From an uncultured Bacilli bacterium (lineage in GTDB: Bacteria; Bacillota_I; Bacilli_A; RF39; UBA660), in contig CAJTWC010000001.1 of assembly GCA_910580185.1 (NCBI GenBank), positions 99,532 to 163,531 on the forward strand: a DNA stretch of 64,000 nt. The letters are read 5' to 3'. The position numbers were made by a program, and so were the translations under genes. Below the pieces are notes generated by a model. It did no database searches, was not told the origin of the DNA, and worked only from the letters and a program-made list of their open reading frames with translations. Below are positions 3,980 to 61,591 of the stretch, in pieces (position 1 is the stretch's first letter; every line of letters begins with the position of its first letter).

Positions 3980-5959
3980 CTAAAAATTAGATCGTTTTGA
4001 TTCTTCAAGGGTATAAAATTTTATACTAAATTCTTCTTTTTTCTTAGTTTTTTTTGTTATAAATATCATTAATCCAATAATTATAAACGCAATTATAACC
4101 ATAATTATTATTGGTATAATATTTTTTTTATTAGCAGCTGCCTTTTTTTCTAATAAAACGTATTCAGAAAAGTGATTTAATTCAAAGTCTGCATAACCGT
4201 TAGTTATAGGAACCTTATTTATCTCTAATTCCAAGATATTATTTTTAGTATTAAAATAATATAAGTCATACTCTTTTGTAGTATCTAACATATCTTTTAC
4301 GTATATGCTAAATTCTATATTACCAGGCAACGTTCCATGAAATTTAAAGTTTAATGGTAAATGTAAATTATTCTCCGTTAAAGAATTTAACACGTCTTCA
4401 TAATCGCTTTTAAAGGTTAAATAGTAACTAAATTCACTATCCTTTACTAATTTTTCACTATTTATCTTTACTTTGTATAAAACCTTTCCTTCCTTATCAA
4501 CTACGTTATACGCTAAGTTTTTATTAGTGTTTATAAGCTCATTAATAATGTTAGAAGAAACAATTTTATTTTCATCATCTTCATCAACGGTTACCACGAT
4601 ATCATCATTATTTGATGTATCTTTTATTTTGCTTACGATTTCTTCTTCGTTATTTTCTGATTTTAACACACTTTTTTCTCTAGTAATATTAAGTACGTAA
4701 GTTCTTATACTTCCATCTTCTGCGGTGACGTTTATTTCTATTTTGTTTTCTCCAACTTCTAAAGCAGTGTTTCCAGATATACTTGCTACTGCTTTACTAC
4801 TTGTAGTTTCATAGCTAACTTTAGCTTCCACAACCTCGTTTGGAACGTTTACGTTATAAGTTAAAGTTTTTTTATTAAACTCTATATCTGCGCCCTCTAT
4901 ACTTAAACTCTTTAAACTATTATCACTCGAAACAGTTATTTTACCATCCTTATTAGCGCGTATTATCGTTATAGTATAAGTTTTAACTGACCCATTTTCC
5001 GCTGTGACAACAACGTTAAACGTATTTTTACCTACTTTTAAACTTTTGCTTCCTAAGCCTTGTACGCTTGCCTTTTTATCACTTGTAGTAGCGGTTATAT
5101 TAACAGAAGAAACATCATACTTAACCGTTGCGTTATAATTATAAGTGCCACTATTAAATCTTATATCAATATCGCTAACCGATAAGTTACTTAAGTTATT
5201 ATTACTACTTCTAGTATCATTTCTTACTACGTTTATAGTGTATGTTTTTGAGTTACCTGCCTCTGATACAGAAGTTATGGTAAATGAGTTATTACCATAA
5301 TTCAGATTTTTTTGTCCAGTACCAGATACACTTCCTGATTTAGGCGCTACCGCACTAATTACTATGGAAGAAGAATTGGTAACAACGTTATAATTACTTA
5401 CGTTTTCATTAAATGATGGTGTTAAATTACCAGGGCTTACTGATAAATCTACTAAGTTAGCATTAGATGAAGAAGTATAAATCGTTTTAGAAACTTCATT
5501 TAAAGCTACTTCATTGTAGTTTTCATCGCCCACTCTAATCCCACCTAAAGTAATGCTATGTGCTTCGTTATCACTACCATTTGTTCTTAGCACGATGGTT
5601 CCTATGCTTACTCTTCCTTCATAAAGATTAGAAGTAGATAATTTAAACTTACCATCTTTTGCCGTAGAAAACTCCGACCAATTAGATGCGTAATTTGATG
5701 ATACTAAACTCAAATTATTACTTAATCTTACATCACCAGTAAAAGAAGAAATTTTACCAGATACCACGTTCACATAAACCTGGCATGTAACATTTCCTCC
5801 ATTTGGAACTTTTTCTTTATCACAAGATATATTAACACTTGATGATGCGGATAATCCACTTAACCTGCGAGGAAGGACGTATCCAAATAAAACACCAAGA
5901 ATGGTAATTAATAAGATCACTAAAACCGTTATTAATATAATTAATCTTTTCTTTTTCAT
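3980..5959 (-). CDS. Cell-surface anchor protein: N-terminal signal/TM, cohesin-like module, three cadherin-like beta-sandwich repeats, C-terminal TM anchor
   Basis: 659 aa. The motif N-L-x-x-L-S-V/I-S...NYNV/TYNV (typical of cadherin-like beta-sandwich domains) recurs three times. Residues ~40-165 follow a cohesin-like beta pattern; this is inference. There is a C-terminal hydrophobic stretch followed by a KK-rich tail. The start is 14 nt downstream of the dockerin protease gene. Confidence 0.7.
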   Translation of the reverse strand: MKKKRLIILITVLVILLITILGVLFGYVLPRRLSGLSASSSVNISCDKEKVPNGGNVTCQVYVNVVSGKISSFTGDVRLSNNLSLVSSNYASNWSEFSTAKDGKFKLSTSNLYEGRVSIGTIVLRTNGSDNEAHSITLGGIRVGDENYNEVALNEVSKTIYTSSSNANLVDLSVSPGNLTPSFNENVSNYNVVTNSSSIVISAVAPKSGSVSGTGQKNLNYGNNSFTITSVSEAGNSKTYTINVVRNDTRSSNNNLSNLSVSDIDIRFNSGTYNYNATVKYDVSSVNITATTSDKKASVQGLGSKSLKVGKNTFNVVVTAENGSVKTYTITIIRANKDGKITVSSDNSLKSLSIEGADIEFNKKTLTYNVNVPNEVVEAKVSYETTSSKAVASISGNTALEVGENKIEINVTAEDGSIRTYVLNITREKSVLKSENNEEEIVSKIKDTSNNDDIVVTVDEDDENKIVSSNIINELINTNKNLAYNVVDKEGKVLYKVKINSEKLVKDSEFSYYLTFKSDYEDVLNSLTENNLHLPLNFKFHGTLPGNIEFSIYVKDMLDTTKEYDLYYFNTKNNILELEINKVPITNGYADFELNHFSEYVLLEKKAAANKKNIIPIIIMVIIAFIIIGLMIFITKKTKKKEEFSIKFYTLEESKRSNF

Positions 5960-5973
5960 ATTTCTACTCCTTC

Positions 5974-8900
5974 CTAAATTAAACTTAAGATATTATTAAT
6001 TATGTAAGCAAATAACTTTGATATATCAGTTATCGTAATGTTTCCATCTTTATTTGTATCACTTGCTTTTAAATAATAATCTTCTTTAATCTCATATTCA
6101 TTATCATCAATGTGACTAAATAGTTTCGACACGTCGGTTATCGTAACTAACCCATCACCGTTTATATCACCTAAAACAATATTATAAATTTCGCTTATAA
6201 CCTTATCTCTATAAATTATTTTAGTAATGCTTCCTGTTGTTATATAATCTTCATCACTTAGTTCTTCTCCATCAAGATTATAAACTTTCATACTATAATT
6301 AGTTTTTAATTTTATTTTAGATAAATAATCTTTAAGCATGGTTTTTTGTTCTATGTTTAAAATATAGTTATCTAAAAGTTCATAGCCATCTAAATTATCT
6401 ATACTATTTATTTGCCAAATTGCATATAACGTGATCTTTTCCTCAGGTTCAGCTAAATTTAGTACTGTTTCTCTGTTTTTATAAGACGTTCCTGTTCCAT
6501 CTGGCTTCGTATTCCATTCTTTAAACAAATAACCAGTTCTTCTAAATGTATTAGAGTTTAAATTATCTTCGTAATTATATGAAAACTCTTGTTCTTTAAT
6601 ATTTCCAGTTCCATCATTGGCATCAAATAAAACAGTGTATATTTGGTCCCATATAGCATACAAGGTAATCGTTTCGGTTGGTTTTGCTAAATTCAAGACC
6701 TCTTCTTCATCATCATACCAATCACCAGACTCATCTGGTTTTGTATTCCAGCCTATAAAAATACTTTTTTCTTTTTCAAATGTATTTGCATTTAAACTTG
6801 TATTTTTATTAATAAAGATTTGCTGAGGTTCCATAGTACCTGTACCACCATTTGGATCAAATTTTACATTATAAATAGCTGGTATCCAAATAGCATATAA
6901 AGTTATACTTTTATCTTGCTCGGTAATATTTAATACTTCGGCGCCTTCTAAATAACTAGTACCAGTTCCATCTGACTTCGTATTCCACTCTTTAAATATG
7001 TAATCATCCCTACTAAATAAATTAGATCTTAACTTGGTGCTTACACCTACTTCTATAGCTTGTTCTAATACAGAACCAGCACCACCATTTGCATCATATT
7101 TAATTTTGTAATATAAAGGTGATTCTACTACGTTTATGTTTACATCTTTTTCATAACCATCGTAGTAACTTAAAACATGAAGTGTTGTACTTCCTTTTTC
7201 TTTTCCAATTATATTTCCATCTTCATCTATAGTGGCAACAGACTCATCAGCAATTGAATATGATATGTTTCTTGCCGCATCAATGTTTGGCAAAATATAA
7301 TTGTATATACTCGTATCAAAATCTTTGTATAAGGTAATGTCAGAAATATCTTCGGTAAAATTAAAATCAACACCCTTTAAAATAGGAACCCTAGTTATAC
7401 CATCAATTTCTTTTATCTCGAAATTATCATTAAATCCTTCCCAACTAGAATACGAATTAATATCTTTTAATTCGGTAATGTTTTTTAATTCAACATTTTT
7501 AGCAGTCAATCTTTTTTCAGTTAAACTATAAGGCATACCTTTCAAATAATAAAAATTATTTAAAGTAACCTTTCCGGTACTACTGCTAGAACCAAAAGAG
7601 TTTTCGACCTTACCTAATATTTCATTAGATATGTTTCCTTTAATGTTACCATAATTAAATCCATTAGAAACATTAATTAAACCATTATCATTTACTTTAA
7701 TAGATCCAAACAAACCACCAGATGTACCATTTGAAATTACCGTTCCTCTATTAATAAGGTTGCTTACGTTTAATTCATCAGTATCTCTTGGTGTTGTAAT
7801 ATAACTAAATAAACCTCCTGATTGACCACTACTACTTATTACGGTTGCATCATTATATAAGTTATTTATTTTTTTGTTTTTTAAGGACTTTTTATTTAAA
7901 ACTTCAATATAGGAAGCAATTCCTCCAACGTTATTAGTAGCTGTTATAACTCCATTTTTTACTATAATGTTTTCAAGCGTCAAATCACTTTTCGTATTGT
8001 AGGTACAATTTACATACCCTACTAATGCGCCACCTGAATACGTAATAATTTCAAAATCTTCTATTATTATGTTTTTTAAATATATTGTAGAAATTTCTCC
8101 AACGTTATTATAAACGTCATTGGTAGATGCAATACTAGTAAATAATCCTTGATTATTACCTGCAGGTCTATTGATATAAAGACCTGTTATTTTATGTCCA
8201 TCACCATCAAGGCCACCTTTAAATGAAGAAATAGGTTTCCAACCTGAACCTTCATTATAGTATTTTCCATTTACATTTCTAGTATCATAAGATAAGTCTA
8301 TATCATTACCTAGTTTATAATAAGAGTTAGGTGCAGTTCTTATTAAATTAAGTTCATCAGCATTAGTTATTATGAAAGGATTGTCTATTGTTCCCTTTCC
8401 ATTTAAATCCGGTGTATAACAATTAATCTCTAATTTAAAATCATCATACTTAACGCCATCAACAAACGCAGATACGTTATATGTTCCAAAAGGAACATCG
8501 TTTTCAAATGATAAAATAGCGTTAATATAGTTACCAACTTCATAATTTCTAGATATCGTAAACTTATCTGTTATATCAATACCATTTTCGTCTTTAATAA
8601 CAAAATCTATTTTCTTATCATTAGTAAGTCCTCTACTAGTACCATTTAAAATAATTATGTTATTTTCTTCTGCTAGTTTATGATACTTTAAAGAACTTCC
8701 GTTTTTAGCATCATCAATATTTAGTTCTATCTTATCGTCGACGTTTTTAGTAAAAGCGGATATACCAATATTACTATAAACTGGTAAACTACTGTTATCT
8801 TCACTGGTTACTTTCACTAAAAATTTTTCGTTATCTAATAATATATTCTTATCAGATAAATCAATTGTATATAAACCTGAATAAGTTATATCTTTTTCAC

Positions 8901-28612: not shown

Positions 28613-28865
28613 AAAAAACAGCAAATCATCCCCATAGGGACGAATAGCTGTTTATATCCGTGGTACCACCCAGTTTACTATTAATAAATAATAGTCACTT
28701 TAAGATATTTTAACGGGTTATCTTCCGTCTTAGCCTACTTTAATTAAATTTCGGTAAGATACTCCGAGGTGTTCTTTCTTTAAATTATCTTACTGATATT
28801 CCACCACCATCAGCTCTCTTTTAAGAATCATTTAAATACTTTTCCTCATCAACGTCTTTAAATAT
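28613..28865 (-). promoter_or_regulatory. T-box riboswitch leader
   Basis: Read on the minus strand. Promoter TTGTAA-16-TATAAT (28872-28899). Leader elements in order: GAUGAG K-turn, AGUA, AG bulge AGAGAG (28814-28819), distal loop GGUGGUGGAA, specifier loop GAAAGAACA (28770-28778), T-box UGGGUGGUACCACGG (28658-28672), then a terminator hairpin plus U6 (28613-28618) directly before the RBS. Confidence 0.85.
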
Positions 28866-29035: not shown

Positions 29036-29111
29036 TGGCGCTTCAAGTAGGACTCGAACCTACGACCTGCCGGTTAACAGCCGGATGCTCTACCAACTGA
29101 GCTATTGAAGC
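29036..29111 (-). tRNA. tRNA-Asn (GTT)
   Basis: GCTTCAATAGCTCAGTTGGTAGAGCATCCGGCTGTTAACCGGCAGGTCGTAGGTTCGAGTCCTACTTGAAGCGCCA. Cloverleaf with anticodon loop CTGTTAA, discriminator G and an encoded CCA. Confidence 0.95.
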
Positions 29112-29260
29112 ATAACTCTTTTTGAGGTACAAACAAATTATATATTAATTAAATATCTTTGTCAACAACTTTTTTTAATTTTTTTCTTTACTTAATTATA
29201 TTATATATATTAATACATATTACTAAAAAATATATGGACATGTAATAGATGAAACTATTT

Positions 29261-30751
29261 TTATTTAGCTTCATCTATTTTTATGCTATAACATGCTGGT
29301 CCTTTAACTACGTTACCATCTATATCAAACCTAGAACCATGGCAAGGGCAATCCCAAGTTTTATCAACTTCATTGAAGGTTAAAAAACATTTTAGATGCG
29401 GACATATATTAGATACCGTGTGTTTATTTCCATCTTTATCAAAATAAACGCCTACTCTTTTACCATCTACTTTAGTTACACAAGCTTTATCTTTGTACCA
29501 AGAAGGATTTTTTTTAATCAAGTTAAAAGTATATGCCTTAGTATTAGAAAGCATTGTATTGGTCAAAAAGTTTTTGAATTTAATAATGTTCATACTTCTT
29601 GTAGGATCAAATACTTTTTCATATTTATTTTTTCTGTCTCTTATTAGGTCGTATAGTATTTTTCCTGCAATGGTTCCGTTAGTCATTCCCCAAGTGTTAT
29701 ATCCAGTTGCAATAAATGCGTTTTTATCTTCTTCTGATATTCTTCCTATAAGGGGCATGAAGTCGTTTGTCACAACGTCCATGTTAGTCCACTTATAATT
29801 AGGCGTTTTACCCGTTATGTCTTTTGCTTTATTTACGCATTCATCATAATTCTTTTTATAATTTAATTTGTCACATATCTTTGATGAATTATTTAAATAA
29901 ATAAAATAATTATCATTTTTATCATTATGATATCTAAAGGATATGGTTGGATAGTTACTAGTTATACCACATATATCTTTTGTTTCATCAACTTTAGTAG
30001 CGGTAATATATGACTTTTCCATATAGGTTTTAAATGGAATAAATCCTGGTATGGTAAAAAATGGGTAGCTGCATGCCACAACTATTTTTTTTGCTTTTAC
30101 TTCTTGGCCGTTTGCATATGCCACATAATAATTATCTTCTTTTTTTATTTTAGTTACCCTACTATTTTCATATGTTTTTATATTACTACTTTTTTTAATA
30201 GCTTTTAATAATCCTTTTAAATATTTAACTGGATTAAATACATATGTATTTTTAACTAAAATCATTCGTTTTATATCTTCATCCTTAATATTTGTAGAGT
30301 TAATATAATATTTAACTCCTAAAAGATTTAGTATTTCTTCTTCCTTATCAAACTTTTTTATTTCTTTATTATCTTTTGTAAAAGTAACTGCCTCGGTTTT
30401 AGTAAGATTACATTCTATATCATTATCTTTTACTATCTTTTTAACAAGTCTTATAGCATCTTTTTGAGCTTCGTAATAAAGTTTAGCAGTGTCAAAATCA
30501 AAAACATTATAAATATCTTGGTATTTTAAATCTTGTAAATAGGTTAATTTACCAGTACTTTTACAGGTCGCGCCAGTTAAAAACTTATCTGCTTCAAGCA
30601 AAATAATGCTGTGTTTTTCATCTATAAAATTATAAGCGGTGGTAATCCCGGTTATTCCTCCGCCTATTATAAGAACGTCGGTGCTCATTTTTTCACTTAA
30701 GTTTTCAAATTTAAGCTGTCCCGCATCTTTTTGCCATATACTTTTCCTCAT
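29261..30751 (-). CDS. FAD-dependent oxidoreductase with a C-terminal Rieske [2Fe-2S] domain (YhfW-like)
   Basis: N-terminal VLIIGGGITG; C-terminal CPHLKC...CPCHGSRF Rieske ligand motifs. Confidence 0.8.
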   Translation of the reverse strand: MRKSIWQKDAGQLKFENLSEKMSTDVLIIGGGITGITTAYNFIDEKHSIILLEADKFLTGATCKSTGKLTYLQDLKYQDIYNVFDFDTAKLYYEAQKDAIRLVKKIVKDNDIECNLTKTEAVTFTKDNKEIKKFDKEEEILNLLGVKYYINSTNIKDEDIKRMILVKNTYVFNPVKYLKGLLKAIKKSSNIKTYENSRVTKIKKEDNYYVAYANGQEVKAKKIVVACSYPFFTIPGFIPFKTYMEKSYITATKVDETKDICGITSNYPTISFRYHNDKNDNYFIYLNNSSKICDKLNYKKNYDECVNKAKDITGKTPNYKWTNMDVVTNDFMPLIGRISEEDKNAFIATGYNTWGMTNGTIAGKILYDLIRDRKNKYEKVFDPTRSMNIIKFKNFLTNTMLSNTKAYTFNLIKKNPSWYKDKACVTKVDGKRVGVYFDKDGNKHTVSNICPHLKCFLTFNEVDKTWDCPCHGSRFDIDGNVVKGPACYSIKIDEAK

Positions 30752-30845
30752 AAGTTATCACCAGTATTATTATGGTAGTTATTTACTTACTATATTCATG
30801 GCAAAAATAAAAAAACACCTAAGATAAACTTAAGTGTAATATTCT

Positions 30846-30922
<77 letters not shown>

Positions 30923-30936
30923 ATGTAAATTATAAA

Positions 30937-31029
30937 TGGCGGAGAAAGAGGGATTCGAACCCCCGCGCCGCTTGCGCGACCTCCCGGTTTTCAAGACCGG
31001 TCCCTTCAACCAGACTTGGGTATTTCTCC
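30937..31029 (-). tRNA. tRNA-Ser (TGA)
   Basis: GGAGAAATACCCAAGTCTGG...CCGGTCTTGAAAACCGG plus a long variable arm, ending TTTCTCCGCCA. Confidence 0.95.
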
Positions 31030-31130
31030 AACTTCATAATTATTATATGCAAAAATATAAAACATATAACAATTTGATAGCAATAAGATTATAACACACC
31101 TATTTTTTATTTGTCAATACATAAATTAGG

Positions 31131-31161
31131 TTTAAAAAACAGGCATATAATTATACCTGTT
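31131..31161 (-). terminator. Bidirectional-looking intrinsic terminator downstream of the CDF gene
   Basis: Hairpin AACAGG-12 nt-CCTGTT flanked by an A-run and a T-run. Confidence 0.55.
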
Positions 31162-31398
31162 AAAAAAGATTACTTTGCTAGCCACTTGGCTTATTAATTT
31201 CGTTTAATAAACCTTTAAACTAGCCTTCATATTGTTCACCCTCATTCATATATATTAATCTATAACTAATAATTATATTTATTTTTCTATATTTTGTACA
31301 TTATATCTTATTTTTCTATTTTCTCCACCTACCTTTCTATTTTAAGTATAAAATAAAAATATTAAATTATTATGTCAAAAGAAAAAGAAATTATTTTT

Positions 31399-32277
31399 TT
31401 AATTTCTTTCTCCAGGATTAACATGCACCATACAATGCTTTGTTGATGGTAATCTGTCTTCAATATTATCGTGGATGTTATGTGCAATACTATGCGCATT
31501 TAATACACTCATATTTTTATCTACCGAAATTTCTACATCTATATAGTAACGATTACCGAACTTTCTAGTTTTTAAATCATCTATTTTAACAACGTCCTTA
31601 CTTTCATAAATAATGTCTTCTATCTTTTTTATTGTTTCTTCATCACAAGATTTATCTATCATTTTATCTATTGCATCTTTAAATATGTCATAAGCAACTT
31701 TAATTATAAATAAACATATTATTATACTTGCTATAGAATCAAGCACCGGAAATCCTAATTTTGCACCTAGTATACCAATAAAACTTCCAACTGATGATAA
31801 AGCATCTGACCTATGGTGCCAAGCATCTGCTAGTAATGCACCTGAATTGATCTTTTTAGCGGTGTGTCTTGTATACCAATACATTGCCTCTTTTACTAAA
31901 ATAGACGTTACTGCAATAATAAGTGCTAAAGTACCAGATATTAAAATAACATATTTTCCTTTTATAATATTATTAACTCCAGTTACACCAATTCCAACAC
32001 CAGTTAACATAAGCATTACTGCTAATATAATAGAAGCTACACACTCTAACCTTTCATGACCGTATGGATGTTCTTTATCTGCCTTCTTATTTGATAATTT
32101 AACACCGATTATTACCACAATGGTACTTAATACATCTGATAACGAATGAATTGCATCAGATACCATCGCCTGTGAATGTGAAATAAAACCTGCAACAAAT
32201 TTTACTATTGTTAAAAATATGTTAGAGATTATACTAACAATTGATACTTTCATAGCATCTTTTTCATTATTGTTCAT
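31399..32277 (-). CDS. Cation diffusion facilitator (CDF) family metal efflux transporter
   Basis: Six TM segments, HSLSD and HHRSD motifs in TM2/TM5, and a C-terminal cytoplasmic domain. Confidence 0.85.
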   Translation of the reverse strand: MNNNEKDAMKVSIVSIISNIFLTIVKFVAGFISHSQAMVSDAIHSLSDVLSTIVVIIGVKLSNKKADKEHPYGHERLECVASIILAVMLMLTGVGIGVTGVNNIIKGKYVILISGTLALIIAVTSILVKEAMYWYTRHTAKKINSGALLADAWHHRSDALSSVGSFIGILGAKLGFPVLDSIASIIICLFIIKVAYDIFKDAIDKMIDKSCDEETIKKIEDIIYESKDVVKIDDLKTRKFGNRYYIDVEISVDKNMSVLNAHSIAHNIHDNIEDRLPSTKHCMVHVNPGERN

Positions 32278-32417
32278 AATAACCCTTCTTTCTTTATAGT
32301 ATATGTATATGAAAACATCTTGCGAAAAAAGTAATAACTAATCCCGCAAGATGTTTAATTCATCTGCTGCTTATTAAAAAGCCCGGCCTATTGCCTGATC
32401 TAACAATTTTATCGTGC
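32278..32417 (-). promoter_or_regulatory. Structured 5' leader with mutually exclusive hairpins upstream of the CDF gene (candidate metal-responsive attenuator)
   Basis: Promoter TTGACT-18-TAATAT (32424-32453). There is a perfect 12-bp stem AAACAUCUUGCG/CGCAAGAUGUUU (32313-32324 with 32345-32356) followed by U's. The same CAUCUUGC segment can instead pair upstream with GCAGCAGAUG. Confidence 0.4.
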
Positions 32418-32510
32418 CCTAAAATATTAACACATTAATTCATTAAAAGTCAATTTGTTTTTTGTATTTTTACATAAAAAAACTAACCCTTATGGTCAGT
32501 AATTTTTAAG

Positions 32511-32599
32511 TGGTGCCCGAGGCCGGACTTGAACCGGCACGAGGTTTAACACTCGCAGGATTTTAAGTCCTGTGCGTCTACCAATTCCGCCACTCGGGC
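32511..32599 (-). tRNA. tRNA-Leu (TAA)
   Basis: GCCCGAGTGGCGGAATTGGTAGACGCACAGGACTTAAAATCCTG plus a long variable arm, ending CCTCGGGCACCA. Confidence 0.95.
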
Positions 32600-32600
32600 G

Positions 32601-32676
32601 TGGTGTCCTGTATGCGACTTGAACGCATGACCCTCTGATTAAAAGTCAGATGCTCTACCGACTGAGCTAACAGGAC
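32601..32676 (-). tRNA. tRNA-Lys (TTT)
   Basis: GTCCTGTTAGCTCAGTCGGTAGAGCATCTGACTTTTAATCAGAGGGTCATGCGTTCAAGTCGCATACAGGACACCA. Confidence 0.95.
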
Positions 32677-32690
32677 ATACTACTAAAATT

Positions 32691-32765
32691 TGGTTGCCTC
32701 GGCAAGATTCGAACTTGCGCATGTCAGAGTCAAAGTCTGATGCCTTACCACTTGGCGACGAGGCA
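32691..32765 (-). tRNA. tRNA-Gln (TTG)
   Basis: TGCCTCGTCGCCAAGTGGTAAGGCATCAGACTTTGACTCTGACATGCGCAAGTTCGAATCTTGCCGAGGCAACCA. Confidence 0.95.
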
Positions 32766-32772
32766 ATCTAAG

Positions 32773-32856
32773 TGGTGGGGAGAGGTGGATTCGAACCACC
32801 GAACCCTAAGGAACAGATTTACAGTCTGCCGCGTTTAGCCACTTCGCTATCTCCCC
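32773..32856 (-). tRNA. tRNA-Tyr (GTA)
   Basis: GGGGAGATAGCGAAGTGGCTAAACGCGGCAGACTGTAAATCTGT plus a variable arm, ending CCTCTCCCCACCA. Confidence 0.95.
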
Positions 32857-32860
32857 ATAG

Positions 32861-32936
<76 letters not shown>

Positions 32937-32944
32937 ATAATAAA

Positions 32945-33021
32945 TGGTGGACGCTATAGGACTCGAACCTATGACCCCCTGCTTGTAAGGCAGGTGCTCT
33001 AACCAACTGAGCTAAGCATCC
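32945..33021 (-). tRNA. tRNA-Val (TAC)
   Basis: GGATGCTTAGCTCAGTTGGTTAGAGCACCTGCCTTACAAGCAGGGGGTCATAGGTTCGAGTCCTATAGCGTCCACCA. The six-tRNA operon has the promoter TTGACA-17-TATATT just upstream (~33043-33078). Confidence 0.95.
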
Positions 33022-55242: not shown

Positions 55243-55767
55243 TTATTTTATATTAAATAAGGTTATTAACTTACCAACTTTAAACACTATCTTATCCGCA
55301 TTCTTAATCGCCACTTTTTTAAATATCGCTTTACCACCAACCGTTAAAGATGAAATTAAAGCAGCTAGTATTATACTAACTAAAGTACTATTTATACCGC
55401 TTTTAGAAGATAAACTAATGGATAATATCGCTCCAATTGATCCTGATATAATACCACATACATCTCCTACTATATCATTACATAATGATGATATTTTATT
55501 ACCATTCTTAACTATGAAAACACATTGTTTAGCACCTTTTATTTTTTTCGAGTTTAAAGCATGAAAGCTAGACTCCTTGGCAGTTATTGAAGATGTTCCA
55601 ATAACATCGAATAAAATACCAATAGATATAGTTACTAAAAGTATTATAAACAATACTAAATCATTAAAATTAGCAGCCATAGAATTAGATACAAAGCTAA
55701 AAATAATTGATAATATAAAAGTTAATATAAAAACTATTAATATCCAATTATCTTTTTTATTTTTCAT
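55243..55767 (-). CDS. Small polytopic membrane protein (weak resemblance to the DUF21/CNNM transmembrane domain)
   Basis: 174 aa with four or five hydrophobic spans. The DUF21 likeness is by eye only. Confidence 0.6.
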   Translation of the reverse strand: MKNKKDNWILIVFILTFILSIIFSFVSNSMAANFNDLVLFIILLVTISIGILFDVIGTSSITAKESSFHALNSKKIKGAKQCVFIVKNGNKISSLCNDIVGDVCGIISGSIGAILSISLSSKSGINSTLVSIILAALISSLTVGGKAIFKKVAIKNADKIVFKVGKLITLFNIK

Positions 55768-55779
55768 AAAGCCTCCTAA

Positions 55780-56285
55780 TAAAAAAACTTTAACAACAAG
55801 TTAAAGTTAGTTTTTCTGTATGGTATATTACAAATCAACTTTACGGCTTTGGTCGAGTTGAATTTCTCTTTCCAGTACTCAAGATTACTCTTAAAGCACT
55901 TTCGTTTTAAACCGGAAAACTATCTGTTGCCATAAATAGTTACTCGATTACCACTTAGTCCGCACTTTAATACTTGTAATATATACACGCTAGAGGTTTT
56001 CCCTAACAAAAGTGACTATTCTTATATGCTTTTGCATTTGATATTTCATTAATTATTCTAAATCCCTACCAAACACTCACATCATGTACGTTATTATATT
56101 ATTTCAGTGACGTGATAAAAGGAATTATCAGCTGCATGCCATTGCAGTTATCCTTAAATCTTAAATCTTATTAACACCCTAACTTGGGCAGAAAAAGCAT
56201 TAATAAGAAGTGTCATTCGACAATTGGTAGATTTTTAGGCCTACCTTCAAATAGTATAATGACTAGCATAATGCACCACACATGA
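55780..56285 (-). ncRNA. ~500-nt ORF-free transcript from a consensus promoter to an intrinsic terminator; long structured leader/riboswitch candidate for the 55243-55767 gene
   Basis: Promoter TTGACT-17-TATAAT (56291-56319, minus strand). No ORF of 60 aa or more in any frame. Composition is visibly less AT-rich than other spacers. Terminator AACUUUAAC-5 nt-GUUAAAGUU plus U7 (55781-55808) lies 4 nt before the RBS GGAGG. Upstream GUAAAGUU (55837-55844) can pair with the terminator 5' arm instead, and is itself sequestered in the hairpin at 55835-55861. Confidence 0.5.
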
Positions 56286-56400
56286 CCAAAATTATAGCAT
56301 ATTACTATCTAAAAGTCAATTTTCAGATATCATACTACAATTTATTATATTCATAGTATAAACAAATTAATACTTGAAAATACTATTAATGGAGGTAAAA

Positions 56401-56568
56401 ATGATGAATGACGATAATAAATCAATAAAATGCAATGTTGAATCTTGTAAATACAATAATAGCAATGACAACTATTGCACTTTAAATGAAATAAAAGTTA
56501 GTTGCACATGCGATTCATGTGATGCTTGTAAAAAAGAAACGATTTGTGATAGTTTTAAAGAAAAATAA
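56401..56568 (+). CDS. Small Cys-rich protein, DUF1540-like
   Basis: 55 aa from the ATG behind the RBS GGAGGT (the track ORF starts at an upstream TTG). It contains two copies of the pattern KC.V.SC.Y....C....I.V. Confidence 0.6.
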   Translation: MMNDDNKSIKCNVESCKYNNSNDNYCTLNEIKVSCTCDSCDACKKETICDSFKEK

Positions 56569-56640
56569 AAAATTATAATATTTTTTAGTTTATTAATAAG
56601 TTTTATTGAATAAATATAATTGATATTGTATAATATAAAT

Positions 56641-56716
56641 GAAGGAAGCAACTTACTAGTTGTTTTCCAAATTGTTTTTTGTAAAACAAGGCTAGCTTTA
56701 ACTAACCTTGTTTTTC
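56641..56716 (+). ncRNA. Predicted ~75-nt small RNA, module A (antitoxin-like)
   Basis: Promoter TTGAAT-17-TATAAT (56606-56634). 5' hairpin GGAAGCAAC-UUACUA-GUUGUUUUCC. Terminator ACAAGG-14 nt-CCUUGU plus UUUUUCUU. No ORF with an RBS. Confidence 0.55.
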
Positions 56717-56806
56717 TTATATACTAAAAATAATAACTAGTACTATTATAAGTATTAAAATGATAATTAATTTTGGACTAAATTTTATTTCAAATCTAAA
56801 TCTCAT
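56717..56806 (-). CDS. Unannotated 29-aa hydrophobic peptide, module A (type I toxin-like)
   Basis: MRFRFEIKFSPKLIIILILIIVLVIIFSI. SD GGAAGGTGGTGG lies 5 nt upstream of the ATG. The stop abuts the shared terminator. Confidence 0.55.
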   Translation of the reverse strand: MRFRFEIKFSPKLIIILILIIVLVIIFSI

Positions 56807-56943
56807 AATTACCACCACCTTCCTATTCTTCATAAAAAGATGGAAAACAAAGCTAGCTTTCTACTGCTTCCTATATAATTATTAGCCATGAATTTTAAAA
56901 TTCCACTAAAAATACGAAAAAAGTTGAACTTTTTTAAACTCTT

Positions 56944-57984
56944 TTATATTTTGATTTGTTTAAGCATAGCTATACCATTAGTATTTTCAGGATTATCTTT
57001 TTCTATTAACGATATATAAAAATTTATTGCTCTATTCCTTCCTTCAGTCTTATGCTGCAAAGCATCTATTTGTCTTAAAACACCATCTTCGCTAATACAA
57101 TATCTATATAAATCTATCATTTTATCAAATCTACTAATTTCTATTTCATTTTTAAATAGAAAAAATATAAGAGGTCTTCCTGTTTCATAATACCTTTCCT
57201 CCCAATTATCATCACAATACCTATTATCTTCTAGATAATCTTCTAATATACTACAATTATTTTCTTTTACTATATGATATAGTAAATCAACTAATATATT
57301 CTTTTGCTCAAAAGTTAAATCTCCATAAACACTTTCATTCATTGCAAAATTTGCTATTCCTGCCACAATACTTGAACCATTGCTAAGCATTTGATAATTA
57401 GTCCTTTTATCTAATATCAGCTTTCTAGTAACATTATTTATATTTTTGTGATCAAACATACACCAAAATGGTTCATAACTTGCTAAAATTTTTCTTGTAT
57501 TAGGGTTAAAAAGACCTCTATCTATTAAATTTTTATACATATCATAGAATTCTTGTTTATCCCATTTTATCCTATTTAATAATAAATAAATTGGATCTGT
57601 ATCACCTTTATCAATTTTAATTTCCCAATACAAATCATAAGAATTAACATATTTATAAAATTCATAGTTTTTTGCATCTTTAAAATCAACCATAGTCCAT
57701 TCATAATCAAATATTTTATTTTCTAACCCATTAAGAATATATTCCCATTTGCTTTTGATCAATTTATCTAAATCATCTAAACTATCTGATAAGTTGACAT
57801 TAAACAAATTATTTGCAATTTCTGTGTTTTTTTCTTTAAATCTCAATGTACCATTATATTTACTATCATACATATATTTTTTGTTTAATTCGTTTCTTTG
57901 CTCTAATCTAATTTTACATAAATCAACATTGTATCTTATTGTTAACATTATTAAAAAGTTAAAATATTCTTCTTTTGGATTCAT
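56944..57984 (-). CDS. Orphan 346-aa protein bracketed by the two module copies
   Basis: Long ORF with the RBS AGGTG. I recognise no family, TM segment or signal peptide. Confidence 0.65.
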   Translation of the reverse strand: MNPKEEYFNFLIMLTIRYNVDLCKIRLEQRNELNKKYMYDSKYNGTLRFKEKNTEIANNLFNVNLSDSLDDLDKLIKSKWEYILNGLENKIFDYEWTMVDFKDAKNYEFYKYVNSYDLYWEIKIDKGDTDPIYLLLNRIKWDKQEFYDMYKNLIDRGLFNPNTRKILASYEPFWCMFDHKNINNVTRKLILDKRTNYQMLSNGSSIVAGIANFAMNESVYGDLTFEQKNILVDLLYHIVKENNCSILEDYLEDNRYCDDNWEERYYETGRPLIFFLFKNEIEISRFDKMIDLYRYCISEDGVLRQIDALQHKTEGRNRAINFYISLIEKDNPENTNGIAMLKQIKI

Positions 57985-58083
57985 AACTACACCTATAAAT
58001 TAATACCATTTATTATAAATTATTTAAATATTTTTATCAATATAAATATTGAATAAACATAACTGCTATTGTATAATATAAAA

Positions 58084-58165
58084 GAAGGAAGCAACATTAC
58101 TAGTTGTTTTCCAAAATGTTTTCAAATTGAAAAACAGAGCTAGTTACCCACTAACTCTGTTTTTC
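58084..58165 (+). ncRNA. Predicted ~80-nt small RNA, module B
   Basis: Promoter TTGAAT-17-TATAAT (58049-58077). Same 5' hairpin as copy A. Terminator ACAGAG-15 nt-CUCUGU plus a U-run. Confidence 0.55.
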
Positions 58166-58255
58166 TTATATACTAAAAATAATAACTAGTACTATCATAA
58201 GTATTAGAATGATAATTAATTTTGGACTAAATTTTATTTCAAATCTAAACCTCAT
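58166..58255 (-). CDS. Unannotated 29-aa hydrophobic peptide, module B
   Basis: MRFRFEIKFSPKLIIILILMIVLVIIFSI, one substitution relative to copy A. SD AGAAGGGTGGTG. Confidence 0.55.
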   Translation of the reverse strand: MRFRFEIKFSPKLIIILILMIVLVIIFSI

Positions 58256-58376
58256 AAATATCACCACCCTTCTATTTTTCATAAAAAGATGGAAAACAAA
58301 GCTAGTTTCTACTGCTTCCTAATTAATTGTTAGTCATAAATTTTAAAATTCCCCTATTTTTTTAATAAAAAAAAGA

Positions 58377-61174: not shown

Positions 61175-61285
61175 ATTTTCACATCCTTACTTTTTTATTA
61201 TAATACAATTAAAGATTTTTAACAATTAAATTGCGTTTTCAAGTATAATATTTACATTATTTTGTTATTATTGTATAATCTAATT

Positions 61286-61373
61286 AGTGAGAGCACCTAA
61301 CTTAAGGTTAGTAGCTTTCCTTAATGTTTGTTAAGGAAAAAGCGTACACCCCCCTGGGTAAGTACGCTTTTTC
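61286..61373 (+). ncRNA. Predicted ~90-nt small RNA, module C (divergent family member)
   Basis: Promoter TTTACA-17-TATAAT (61251-61279). 5' hairpin CCUAAC-UUAA-GGUUAG, second hairpin UUCCUUAA..UUAAGGAA, terminator GCGUAC-14 nt-GUACGC plus U5. Confidence 0.5.
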
Positions 61374-61375
61374 TT

Positions 61376-61456
61376 TTATATCTTAAATACTAGCATGGCT
61401 ATTATTATAAGTAAAAGAAGTATTATTACTCTAAGAAAACGTCTTTCTTCTTTCAT
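61376..61456 (-). CDS. Unannotated 26-aa hydrophobic peptide, module C
   Basis: MKEERRFLRVIILLLLIIIAMLVFKI. SD AGAGGGGTGGTG lies 6 nt upstream. Its own -10 TATAAT is at 61526-61531 (minus strand). Confidence 0.5.
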   Translation of the reverse strand: MKEERRFLRVIILLLLIIIAMLVFKI

Positions 61457-61591
61457 AATATCACCACCCCTCTATATTCATATTAGGATGGAAAGCATAA
61501 CTAACCCATTATTAGGTGTCCTCATATTATACTTCGCCATTATTTTATAAAATCCCCTAAAAAAATAAAAAAATTAGAATTTCTTCTAATT

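Follow-up and report, generated by a model that had tools for sequence, protein, structure and literature searches.

What might a bacterium gain from two very short transcription units that face one another across a single terminator, one of them encoding a tiny hydrophobic peptide and the other apparently no protein? Such a locus lies in a 64-kb stretch of DNA from an uncultured Bacilli bacterium (the whole stretch is referred to here as the window), in which a unit of ~310 bp is found three times within 5 kb. Copy A (56604-56908) holds a small-RNA gene on the plus strand and a peptide gene on the minus strand. Copy B (58047-58356) is a complete paralogous module with 89% identity to A, and copy C (~61250-61560) is a diverged paralogue, so that the three copies spoken of in an earlier reading of this DNA (the original prediction) are indeed present. 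At least 13 further modules were found in metagenome-assembled genomes (MAGs) and metagenome contigs of related uncultured gut Firmicutes. On balance, we believe that the module is probably a new type I toxin-antitoxin (TA)-like system that acts through a duplex between the 3' ends of its two RNAs; "type I TA-like" is used here as a well-supported analogy, for a module that stands outside the par/Fst and TxpA/RatA families.

The answer must begin with the small RNA. In copy A, the plus-strand promoter TTGAAT-17-TATAAT was found at 56606-56634, as the original prediction had it, with a 10/12 match to the consensus; its plus-strand counterparts lie at 58049-58077 in copy B and, as TTTACA-17-TATAAT, at 61251-61279 in copy C. 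Promoter-like matches overall are at chance level in this DNA of 28% GC (19 found, 21.4 expected), but every one of the 16 homologous modules has kept the -35/-10 pair with its 17-nt spacing, in most cases as TTTACA-17-TGTATAAT. The predicted transcript of copy A, ~78 nt long (56641-56718, plus strand, ends inferred; RNAfold -22.3 kcal/mol), is without a conserved open reading frame (ORF) and folds into three hairpins: a 5' hairpin (HP1s, GGAAGCAAC..GUUGUUUUCC, 56644-56667), a small second hairpin (HP2), and the terminator (56683-56714), after which comes the U-run UUUUUCUU. The ORF-less RNA closed by a hairpin and a U-run that had been proposed from the letters is thus recovered in the fold. 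A simple terminator scanner overlooked this last hairpin because of its internal mismatch and long loop. The corresponding predicted RNAs occupy ~58084-58167 in copy B and 61286-61375 in copy C (both plus strand), and across modules the predicted length is ~78-95 nt.

That the structure, rather than the letters alone, has been maintained is indicated by covariation in a model-guided alignment of 12 C-type small RNAs. In this alignment 97.3% of cells are paired, and sliding the partner columns lowers the figure to 27-55%; two-sided pair changes number 9, against 2.3 in shuffles, and none of 500 shuffles reached as many. The signal is confined to two of the three helices, HP2 (4/6 pairs) and the terminator (5/11 pairs), and a hand-anchored test of HP2 was not matched in any of 2000 permutations. 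Copies A and B add compensatory differences in the terminator, with CAAGG/CCUUG in the one and CAGAG/CUCUG in the other. HP1, for its part, is invariant in the C-type alignment while the rest of the module diverges, and its G-U pairs would be C-A mismatches on the minus strand, which fits the plus-strand orientation of the promoter. A peptide encoded within the small RNA was also considered and rejected: the HP2 loop of copy C does contain an AUG, but this loop is variable and is without the AUG elsewhere.

Is the peptide on the opposite strand equally real? The 29-aa ORF of copy A (MRFRFEIKFSPKLIIILILIIVLVIIFSI; 56717-56806, minus strand, stop codon included) and its very strong Shine-Dalgarno (SD) sequence were located where they had been placed. 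The peptide has a grand average of hydropathicity (GRAVY) of 2.0, a basic N-terminus and an uncharged run of 17 residues; across modules the peptides measure 26-29 aa, with GRAVY values of 1.6-2.0 and predicted mRNAs of ~185-195 nt, and those of the C-type modules are without P or G and hydrophobic at the C-terminus. The ORF of copy B lies at 58166-58255 and the 26-aa ORF of copy C, MKEERRFLRVIILLLLIIIAMLVFKI, at 61376-61456, both on the minus strand. A 38-aa version of the copy A product, starting from an in-frame upstream AUG, was set aside: that AUG has no SD, and neither in copy C nor in a related contig (L011) does it share the frame of the ORF, so the 29-aa form is the conserved product. 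Whether homologous loci keep the tiny ORF was named from the outset as a point that could tell against the idea, and they do preserve it, in start codon, reading frame and length alike. In 11 of 12 C-type copies, translation would begin at the SD-proximal AUG and continue in frame for exactly 26 codons, and the same length recurs in 5 further database variants. Random mutants at the observed divergence (16-21 differences) preserve the ORF in 7-13% of cases; it is retained in all nine distinct homologues. In the C-type ORFs, 18-19 of the 26 codons have T as their second base. As a separate observation, in the C-type module of L011 (~4265-4635) the peptide ORF is frameshifted by the loss of 2 nt (MKSETKFQRVIILFAYNNSHASI); the module is probably a decaying copy, on a contig binned as Muribaculaceae, probably through a binning error.

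The leader of the peptide mRNA was compared as well. In copy A, the SD sequence GGAAGGUGGUGG (56812-56823, minus strand) ends 5 nt ahead of the AUG; in related copies it is AGAAAGGUGGUGAUA, complementary at 13 of 15 positions to the canonical Firmicute 16S 3' end (a general reference sequence, the 16S gene being outside the window). The SD-sequestering pairing first proposed, CCAUCUUUU/GGAAGGUGG, holds and grows in the minimum free energy (MFE) fold into a 12-bp hairpin, CCAUCUUUUUAU/AUAGGAAGGUGG (56815-56843, minus strand), whose G-U pairs make it specific to that strand. The hairpin is kept in all 14 canonical leaders, and in one relative, L029, both of its arms have shifted together, to CCACUUUU/AAAAGGUGG; in copy C it lies with the mRNA 5' hairpin at ~61464-61524 on the minus strand. 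A different arrangement is seen in L031-L033 (e.g. L031 480-830), where an ordinary AAGGAG leader stands in place of the 5' hairpin and SD lock, the peptide has a 9-codon N-terminal extension (MKFVIDYDI...), and the small-RNA gene is intact. Upstream, the promoter region of copy A (56873-56909, minus strand) is weak, as had been claimed, and ambiguous as well. At about the expected -35 position, copies A, B and C and all homologues share a conserved TTAG(G/T)GGAATTTTAAAA box, which in copy A is TTAGTGGAATTTTAAAA (56890-56909, minus strand) and holds a perfect 14-nt palindrome, GAATTTTAAAATTC. This box could act as a poor -35 or UP element, or could be bound as an operator by some protein. Judged by sequence comparison, there is a strong case that the small-RNA gene and the gene for the tiny membrane peptide are real, and that the SD is locked.

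Where else does the module occur, and does its distribution suit a pair of genes or a mobile repeat? A search pattern built on the anti-SD/SD core led to 8 real modules in 4 uncultured gut MAGs, and a profile of mis-called extended ORFs led to more in JGI, Logan and ENA contigs. An exhaustive hidden Markov model search of 1.84 billion representative proteins gave only 7 matches, each with a core of 26 aa whose last residues are LIF[KE]I, so the family looks small and restricted to a single clade. The core-pattern scan of JGI metagenomes returned 6 matches, all of them high-GC chance hits and none a module; the same scan of viral contigs found no module, and a distant blastn search of plasmids and phages with copy C found no match. 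The modules occupy unrelated intergenic sites, such as mltG-ruvX, HAD-methyltransferase and hexapeptide transferase-LytR. The sole relative syntenic with the window, L013, has an orthologue of copy C that is 82% identical, compared with 80% for the flanking genes, and copy C has thus stayed at one chromosomal site, between the cdsA and KH/rpsP genes, since the split from L013. In near-identical strains, short-read contigs stop inside copies B and C, as is expected of a genomic repeat. On a JGI contig (L026), a 36-aa gene is called at 4206-4316 (plus strand), ~700 nt upstream of a C-type module; it may be another small-peptide gene.

These features have to be weighed against the idea that the unit is a non-coding palindromic repeat, similar to repetitive extragenic palindromes and bacterial interspersed mosaic elements (REP/BIME) or miniature inverted-repeat transposable elements (MITE), which spreads between genes and whose ORF and promoters are incidental in AT-rich DNA. 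A repeat of that kind would be multi-copy, ~310 bp long and intergenic, would contain three related imperfect palindromes and break assemblies, all as found here, and the chance frequency of promoter-like hexamers in this DNA would be no surprise. It would not, however, be expected to preserve ORF start, frame, length and hydrophobic periodicity through 16-21 substitutions, nor to keep the SD at 8 nt from the AUG, or the distance between -35 and -10, constant across modules. Moreover, the inverted repeats are internal to the two promoters and have the conserved ORF between them, the orthologous copy C is stable at its single site, viral contigs, phages and plasmids gave no match, and an unsystematic look at the unit ends showed neither target-site duplications nor terminal repeats. 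We regard the repeat explanation as very improbable.

If both genes are real, how might one control the other? The copy A terminator (56683-56714) is bidirectional, with U-runs on either strand and arms that are 92% complementary. With both transcripts predicted to stop at this common terminator, the complementarity of their 3' ends would be perfect over 36-42 nt, and cofolding predicts an intermolecular 3' duplex of 36-42 bp (36 in copy A) that starts just past the stop codon, with a gain of 26-31 kcal/mol over the two RNAs folded separately. The convergence of the two units on one hairpin, with complementary 3' ends, was part of the original prediction and stands. At the same time, the data give no sign of a contact at the ribosome-binding site: a sliding duplex scan of the small RNA against the SD/start region, with shuffled controls and the terminator excluded, returned no signal (z -1.7 to +1.6; approximately -1.7 for the C type and 0 for the A type). 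With the terminator left aside, the one part of the mRNA to which the small RNA was complementary above controls is the 5' hairpin (z -3 to -6). Pairing between the C-rich terminator loop CACCCCCCU and the SD was tried as a further candidate, but reached z ~ -3.3 in the C type only, and we do not rely on it because it is missing in the A type.

We therefore favor a model built on the 3' duplex, which can be set out as follows. On the minus strand, an mRNA of ~195 nt would be made from a weak promoter and would encode a membrane peptide of 26-29 aa, basic at its N-terminus, whose single hydrophobic helix almost reaches the C-terminus; since its very strong SD is held in the 12-bp hairpin, the primary transcript would be poorly translated. 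On the plus strand, a near-consensus promoter would yield the three-hairpin small RNA of 78-95 nt, both transcripts stopping at the shared terminator. The abundant small RNA would pair with the mRNA 3' end, beginning at the complementary terminator stem-loops, and either the long duplex would be cut by a nuclease specific for double-stranded RNA (RNase III), or the mRNA would be stripped of its protective 3' hairpin. By either route, peptide synthesis would be off for as long as the small RNA is made. The nuclease step is proposed on the pattern of par (PMC7472228) and bsrG/SR4 (PMC3834814), for which contacts through terminator loops and decay driven by the antitoxin are on record.

Consider instead a cell in which the same two genes form no TA pair at all, the peptide being a benign small membrane protein (e.g. 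a modulator of a transporter or sensor) and its partner an ordinary cis-antisense or terminator-sharing RNA. Conservation of the ORF, of the SD hairpin and of the small RNA would fit equally well, the peptide is unlike any validated toxin, and the stability of copy C at one site since the split from L013 has a housekeeping-like look. Against this, several diverged paralogues per genome lie at unrelated intergenic sites and one copy, that of L011, is pseudogenised by a frameshift. In addition, an extreme SD with tight occlusion and a strong antisense promoter facing a weak sense promoter are a recurring signature of type I TA loci (PMC8594479), unlike ordinary small membrane proteins. We consider the benign-protein explanation unlikely, while taking it seriously.

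Several observations weigh against the TA-like system that we prefer. The lack of complementarity at the SD and start codon means that a translation block of the par or SprA1 type is not evident; the replacement of the canonical leader in L031-L033 makes SD occlusion dispensable at least there; small hydrophobic peptides are not necessarily toxins; a peptide promoter could not be defined; and the near-invariant 5' hairpin of the small RNA is without an explained role. Nonetheless, one part of the claim that this is a type I TA locus holds well, namely its architecture, which is conserved in 16 modules and backed by covariation and ORF retention. Membership in the par/Fst or TxpA/RatA type, which had been offered as the model, does not hold, since start-site complementarity is missing.

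The near-invariant hairpin leads to an unusual property of the module, which is that its two RNAs begin alike. The mRNA 5' hairpin of copy A (HP1m, 56842-56871, minus strand) has as its apex the 12-nt palindrome AAAGCUAGCUUU, and the likeness to the small RNA appears in the DNA as two pairs of inverted repeats, 56631-56650/56865-56884 and 56660-56676/56834-56850. Same-sense similarity of the two 5' domains is significant in copy A (z = 4.3) and over 13 modules (z 4.3-10.8), and antisense similarity between them is not; the homologous hairpins described in the original prediction are borne out, and we agree that a duplicated 5' domain is unusual. The mRNA-sense terminator, in turn, is complementary in a type-specific manner to the 3' arms of both 5' hairpins: against the mRNA hairpin the energy is ~ -18.0 kcal/mol for cognate or same-type pairs vs -10.9 for cross-type pairs, against the small-RNA hairpin -14.8 vs -10.3 kcal/mol, and the negative control, in which the small RNA's own terminator is set against its own hairpin, has no type difference. 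In the A type, whose mRNA hairpin apex is AAAGCUAGCUUU, the terminator contains AAGGCUAGCUUU. In L029, identical lineage-specific substitutions, GUAGC to GUUGC, recur at three places, namely in both 5' hairpins and in the terminator arm. Together, the type-specific complementarity and these shared substitutions suggest a three-way relation, which may reflect a 5'-3' lock of the mRNA, a role of the small RNA as mimic or decoy, or gene conversion that acts on the repeated hairpins. Long-range 5'-3' pairing of the mRNA appears in the MFE fold only for copy C, with local hairpins winning in 11 of 12 mRNAs. An extended duplex between HP1s and HP1m was rejected as the driver of the interaction: it would bring -20 to -25 kcal/mol but would cost two hairpins of comparable stability, and the loops are non-complementary.

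Could the small RNA then act mainly through this hairpin, by imitating the mRNA 5' domain or standing in as its decoy, in competition for the mRNA terminator arm or for a protein or RNase common to both, or as a regulator in trans? The near-invariance of HP1s in a diverging module, the sense homology of the 5' domains, the substitutions common to both domains and the terminator arm in L029, and the type-specific complementarity with its flat control would all follow, as would the retention of the small RNA in L031-L033 despite the lost mRNA 5' hairpin. On the other hand, long-range pairing prevails in copy C only, the concerted evolution could be functionless gene conversion between repeated hairpins, and neither a partner protein nor a trans target was identified. 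Action chiefly through the 5' hairpin strikes us as distinctly improbable, and the 3' duplex remains our preferred mechanism.

How does a system of this kind relate to those already known? Type I TA loci are described by an mRNA of 150-400 nt, a usually hydrophobic protein of 20-60 aa, and an antisense RNA with a region of complementarity (PMC8594479). The module has a predicted mRNA of ~185-195 nt with a hydrophobic product of 26-29 aa, and a predicted convergent, ORF-less RNA with perfect 3' complementarity over 36-42 nt. Its layout, in which a 3'-side antisense RNA overlaps the terminator alone, is that of Fst/RNAII and SprA1 (PMC8594479; PMC7472228). The par locus of pAD1 and its homologues (Fst/Ldr superfamily; RNA I-RNA II) likewise have convergent promoters, a shared bidirectional terminator and an ORF that is not overlapped, an mRNA of ~200 nt and a small RNA of <100 nt (PMC7472228; PMC8594479), and in par, too, an intramolecular stem-loop (5'-SL) hides the SD and the extreme 5' end is structured (PMC7472228). 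Unlike par, the module has no DRa/DRb direct repeats, and its small RNA stays off the start site; its end repeats are inverted, so that the 5' domains are alike and not complementary. The peptide also differs from Fst, having a charged N-terminus and a hydrophobic C-terminus and being without PXXXG, a charged C-terminal tail or a Pfam Fst match. SprA1/SprA1AS (PepA1) of Staphylococcus aureus resembles the module in its small membrane peptide and in an overlap limited to the 3' end, but its functional contact is the mRNA 5' region, outside the overlap (PMC8594479); the module has no start complementarity, and its peptide is unrelated. The bsrG/SR4 and txpA/RatA loci of Bacillus subtilis have a 3'-side antitoxin, first contact at the terminator loop, mRNA decay and a partly sequestered SD (PMC3834814), all of which the model shares; their antisense RNAs, however, overlap the ORF, in longer overlaps (PMC8594479), where here only the 36-42-nt terminator is involved. 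As the overlap begins past the stop codon and leaves the ORF uncovered, the module is not TxpA/BsrG-like, and it has no family match to TxpA/RatA, BsrG/SR4, BsrE/SR5 or YonT/SR6.

More distant systems offer partial likenesses. Ibs and ShoB of enterobacteria are peptides of 19-29 aa that consist almost entirely of a hydrophobic helix running to the C-terminus; Sib overlaps ibs fully, OhsC is divergent, and the phylum is a different one. The likeness to Ibs and ShoB is one of peptide architecture only, with no sequence match in Pfam and NCBIfam scans. In hok/sok (the fbi element) and aapA1 (a 5'-3' interaction), pairing of the extreme mRNA 5' end keeps the toxin mRNA inert or stable. In par, the 5'-UH places the extreme 5' end of the toxin mRNA in such a pairing (PMC7472228). 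The complementarity of the terminator arm to the 5' hairpin may be a counterpart of these three, with dominance of the long-range fold predicted only in copy C. Consistent with the view that the peptide belongs to no known toxin family, searches of Pfam and NCBIfam (both at E <= 10), and of PADLOC and PHROGs, all at relaxed E-values, gave no match. Rfam, which has 13 type I antitoxin families (PMC8594479), gave none for the module RNA at the gathering score, with only chance-level matches at E <= 5. A literature search did not find the peptide motifs, and one on type I TA systems in Erysipelotrichia-like taxa found nothing relevant. Because databases gave no match, two defining features of par are missing and the ORF overlap of TxpA/BsrG is absent, we would class the module as a putative new family within type I TA.

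The surroundings of copies A and B raise a further question, that of what the modules enclose. Between them lies a 346-aa ORF (56944-57984, minus strand) for which Pfam, NCBIfam, PADLOC and PHROGs gave no family and the PDB neither a sequence nor a fold match; its AlphaFold model is confident and all-helical (predicted local distance difference test score 86, predicted template modeling score 0.85). Homologues at 74% and 40% identity sit on contigs of ~1.27-1.30 kb with partial A-type modules at both ends in the same arrangement and an upstream flank nearly identical to that of the window, so that "module - variable gene - module" is a recurrent composite; more distant homologues are without module flanks, and L013 has an unrelated 215-aa ORF and no modules at the A/B position. 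This suggests that the 346-aa ORF is a hypervariable gene within conserved cassette boundaries. It is tempting to join these observations to those on the 5' hairpins in a broader proposal: a three-element RNA switch, as opposed to an antisense pair of the classical kind, in which mRNA and small RNA have a 5' domain in common that co-evolves with their terminator. The small RNA would mimic the mRNA 5' end and compete for the mRNA terminator arm, in a 5'-3' lock or an antiterminator, or else for some protein or RNase that both RNAs use, with A-type modules as conserved, recombination-prone boundaries of a cassette carrying the hypervariable 346-aa ORF family. As a whole, we hold this proposal to be unlikely.

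Further features of the window were noted in passing. A DUF1540 gene for a small Cys-rich protein (56374-56568, plus strand), also present in L013, adjoins copy A upstream. Beyond it, an ornate large extremophilic (OLE) RNA was found at 55804-56295 (minus strand; 234 bits, full model), with a 174-aa membrane ORF that looks like OapA directly downstream (55243-55767, minus strand); L013 has neither at the corresponding position. An ENA assembly that is otherwise 99.97% identical (L001 3167-4348) diverges just left of copy A (from window position ~56577 leftwards) and has, beyond the breakpoint, an rve-family (IS3-like) transposase gene in place of the DUF1540 gene and OLE. Elsewhere, a 150-nt unit is repeated in tandem at 6415-7035, in three diverged copies that are 63-70% identical and spaced by 234-237 nt, probably as an internal repeat of a protein-coding gene, and a T-box leader (28633-28861) and a nine-tRNA gene cluster (29039-33021) lie on the minus strand.

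Annotation pipelines miss both genes of the module, and the modules interrupt short-read assemblies and flank a hypervariable gene, so that recognising them should lead to better assembly and annotation of MAGs. The consensus promoter, the compact covarying small RNA and the occluded SD are parts usable in the engineering of RNA devices. New type I families are not rare in themselves; what is unusual here is the co-evolution of the mirrored 5' domains with the terminator. Should the peptide prove toxic, the module would give type I TA systems a further family, found in uncultured gut Firmicutes, a group with almost no characterised RNA regulators, and its layout, par-like in outline but with sense-homologous inverted repeats co-evolving with the terminator in place of complementary direct repeats, would be another answer to the same control problem.

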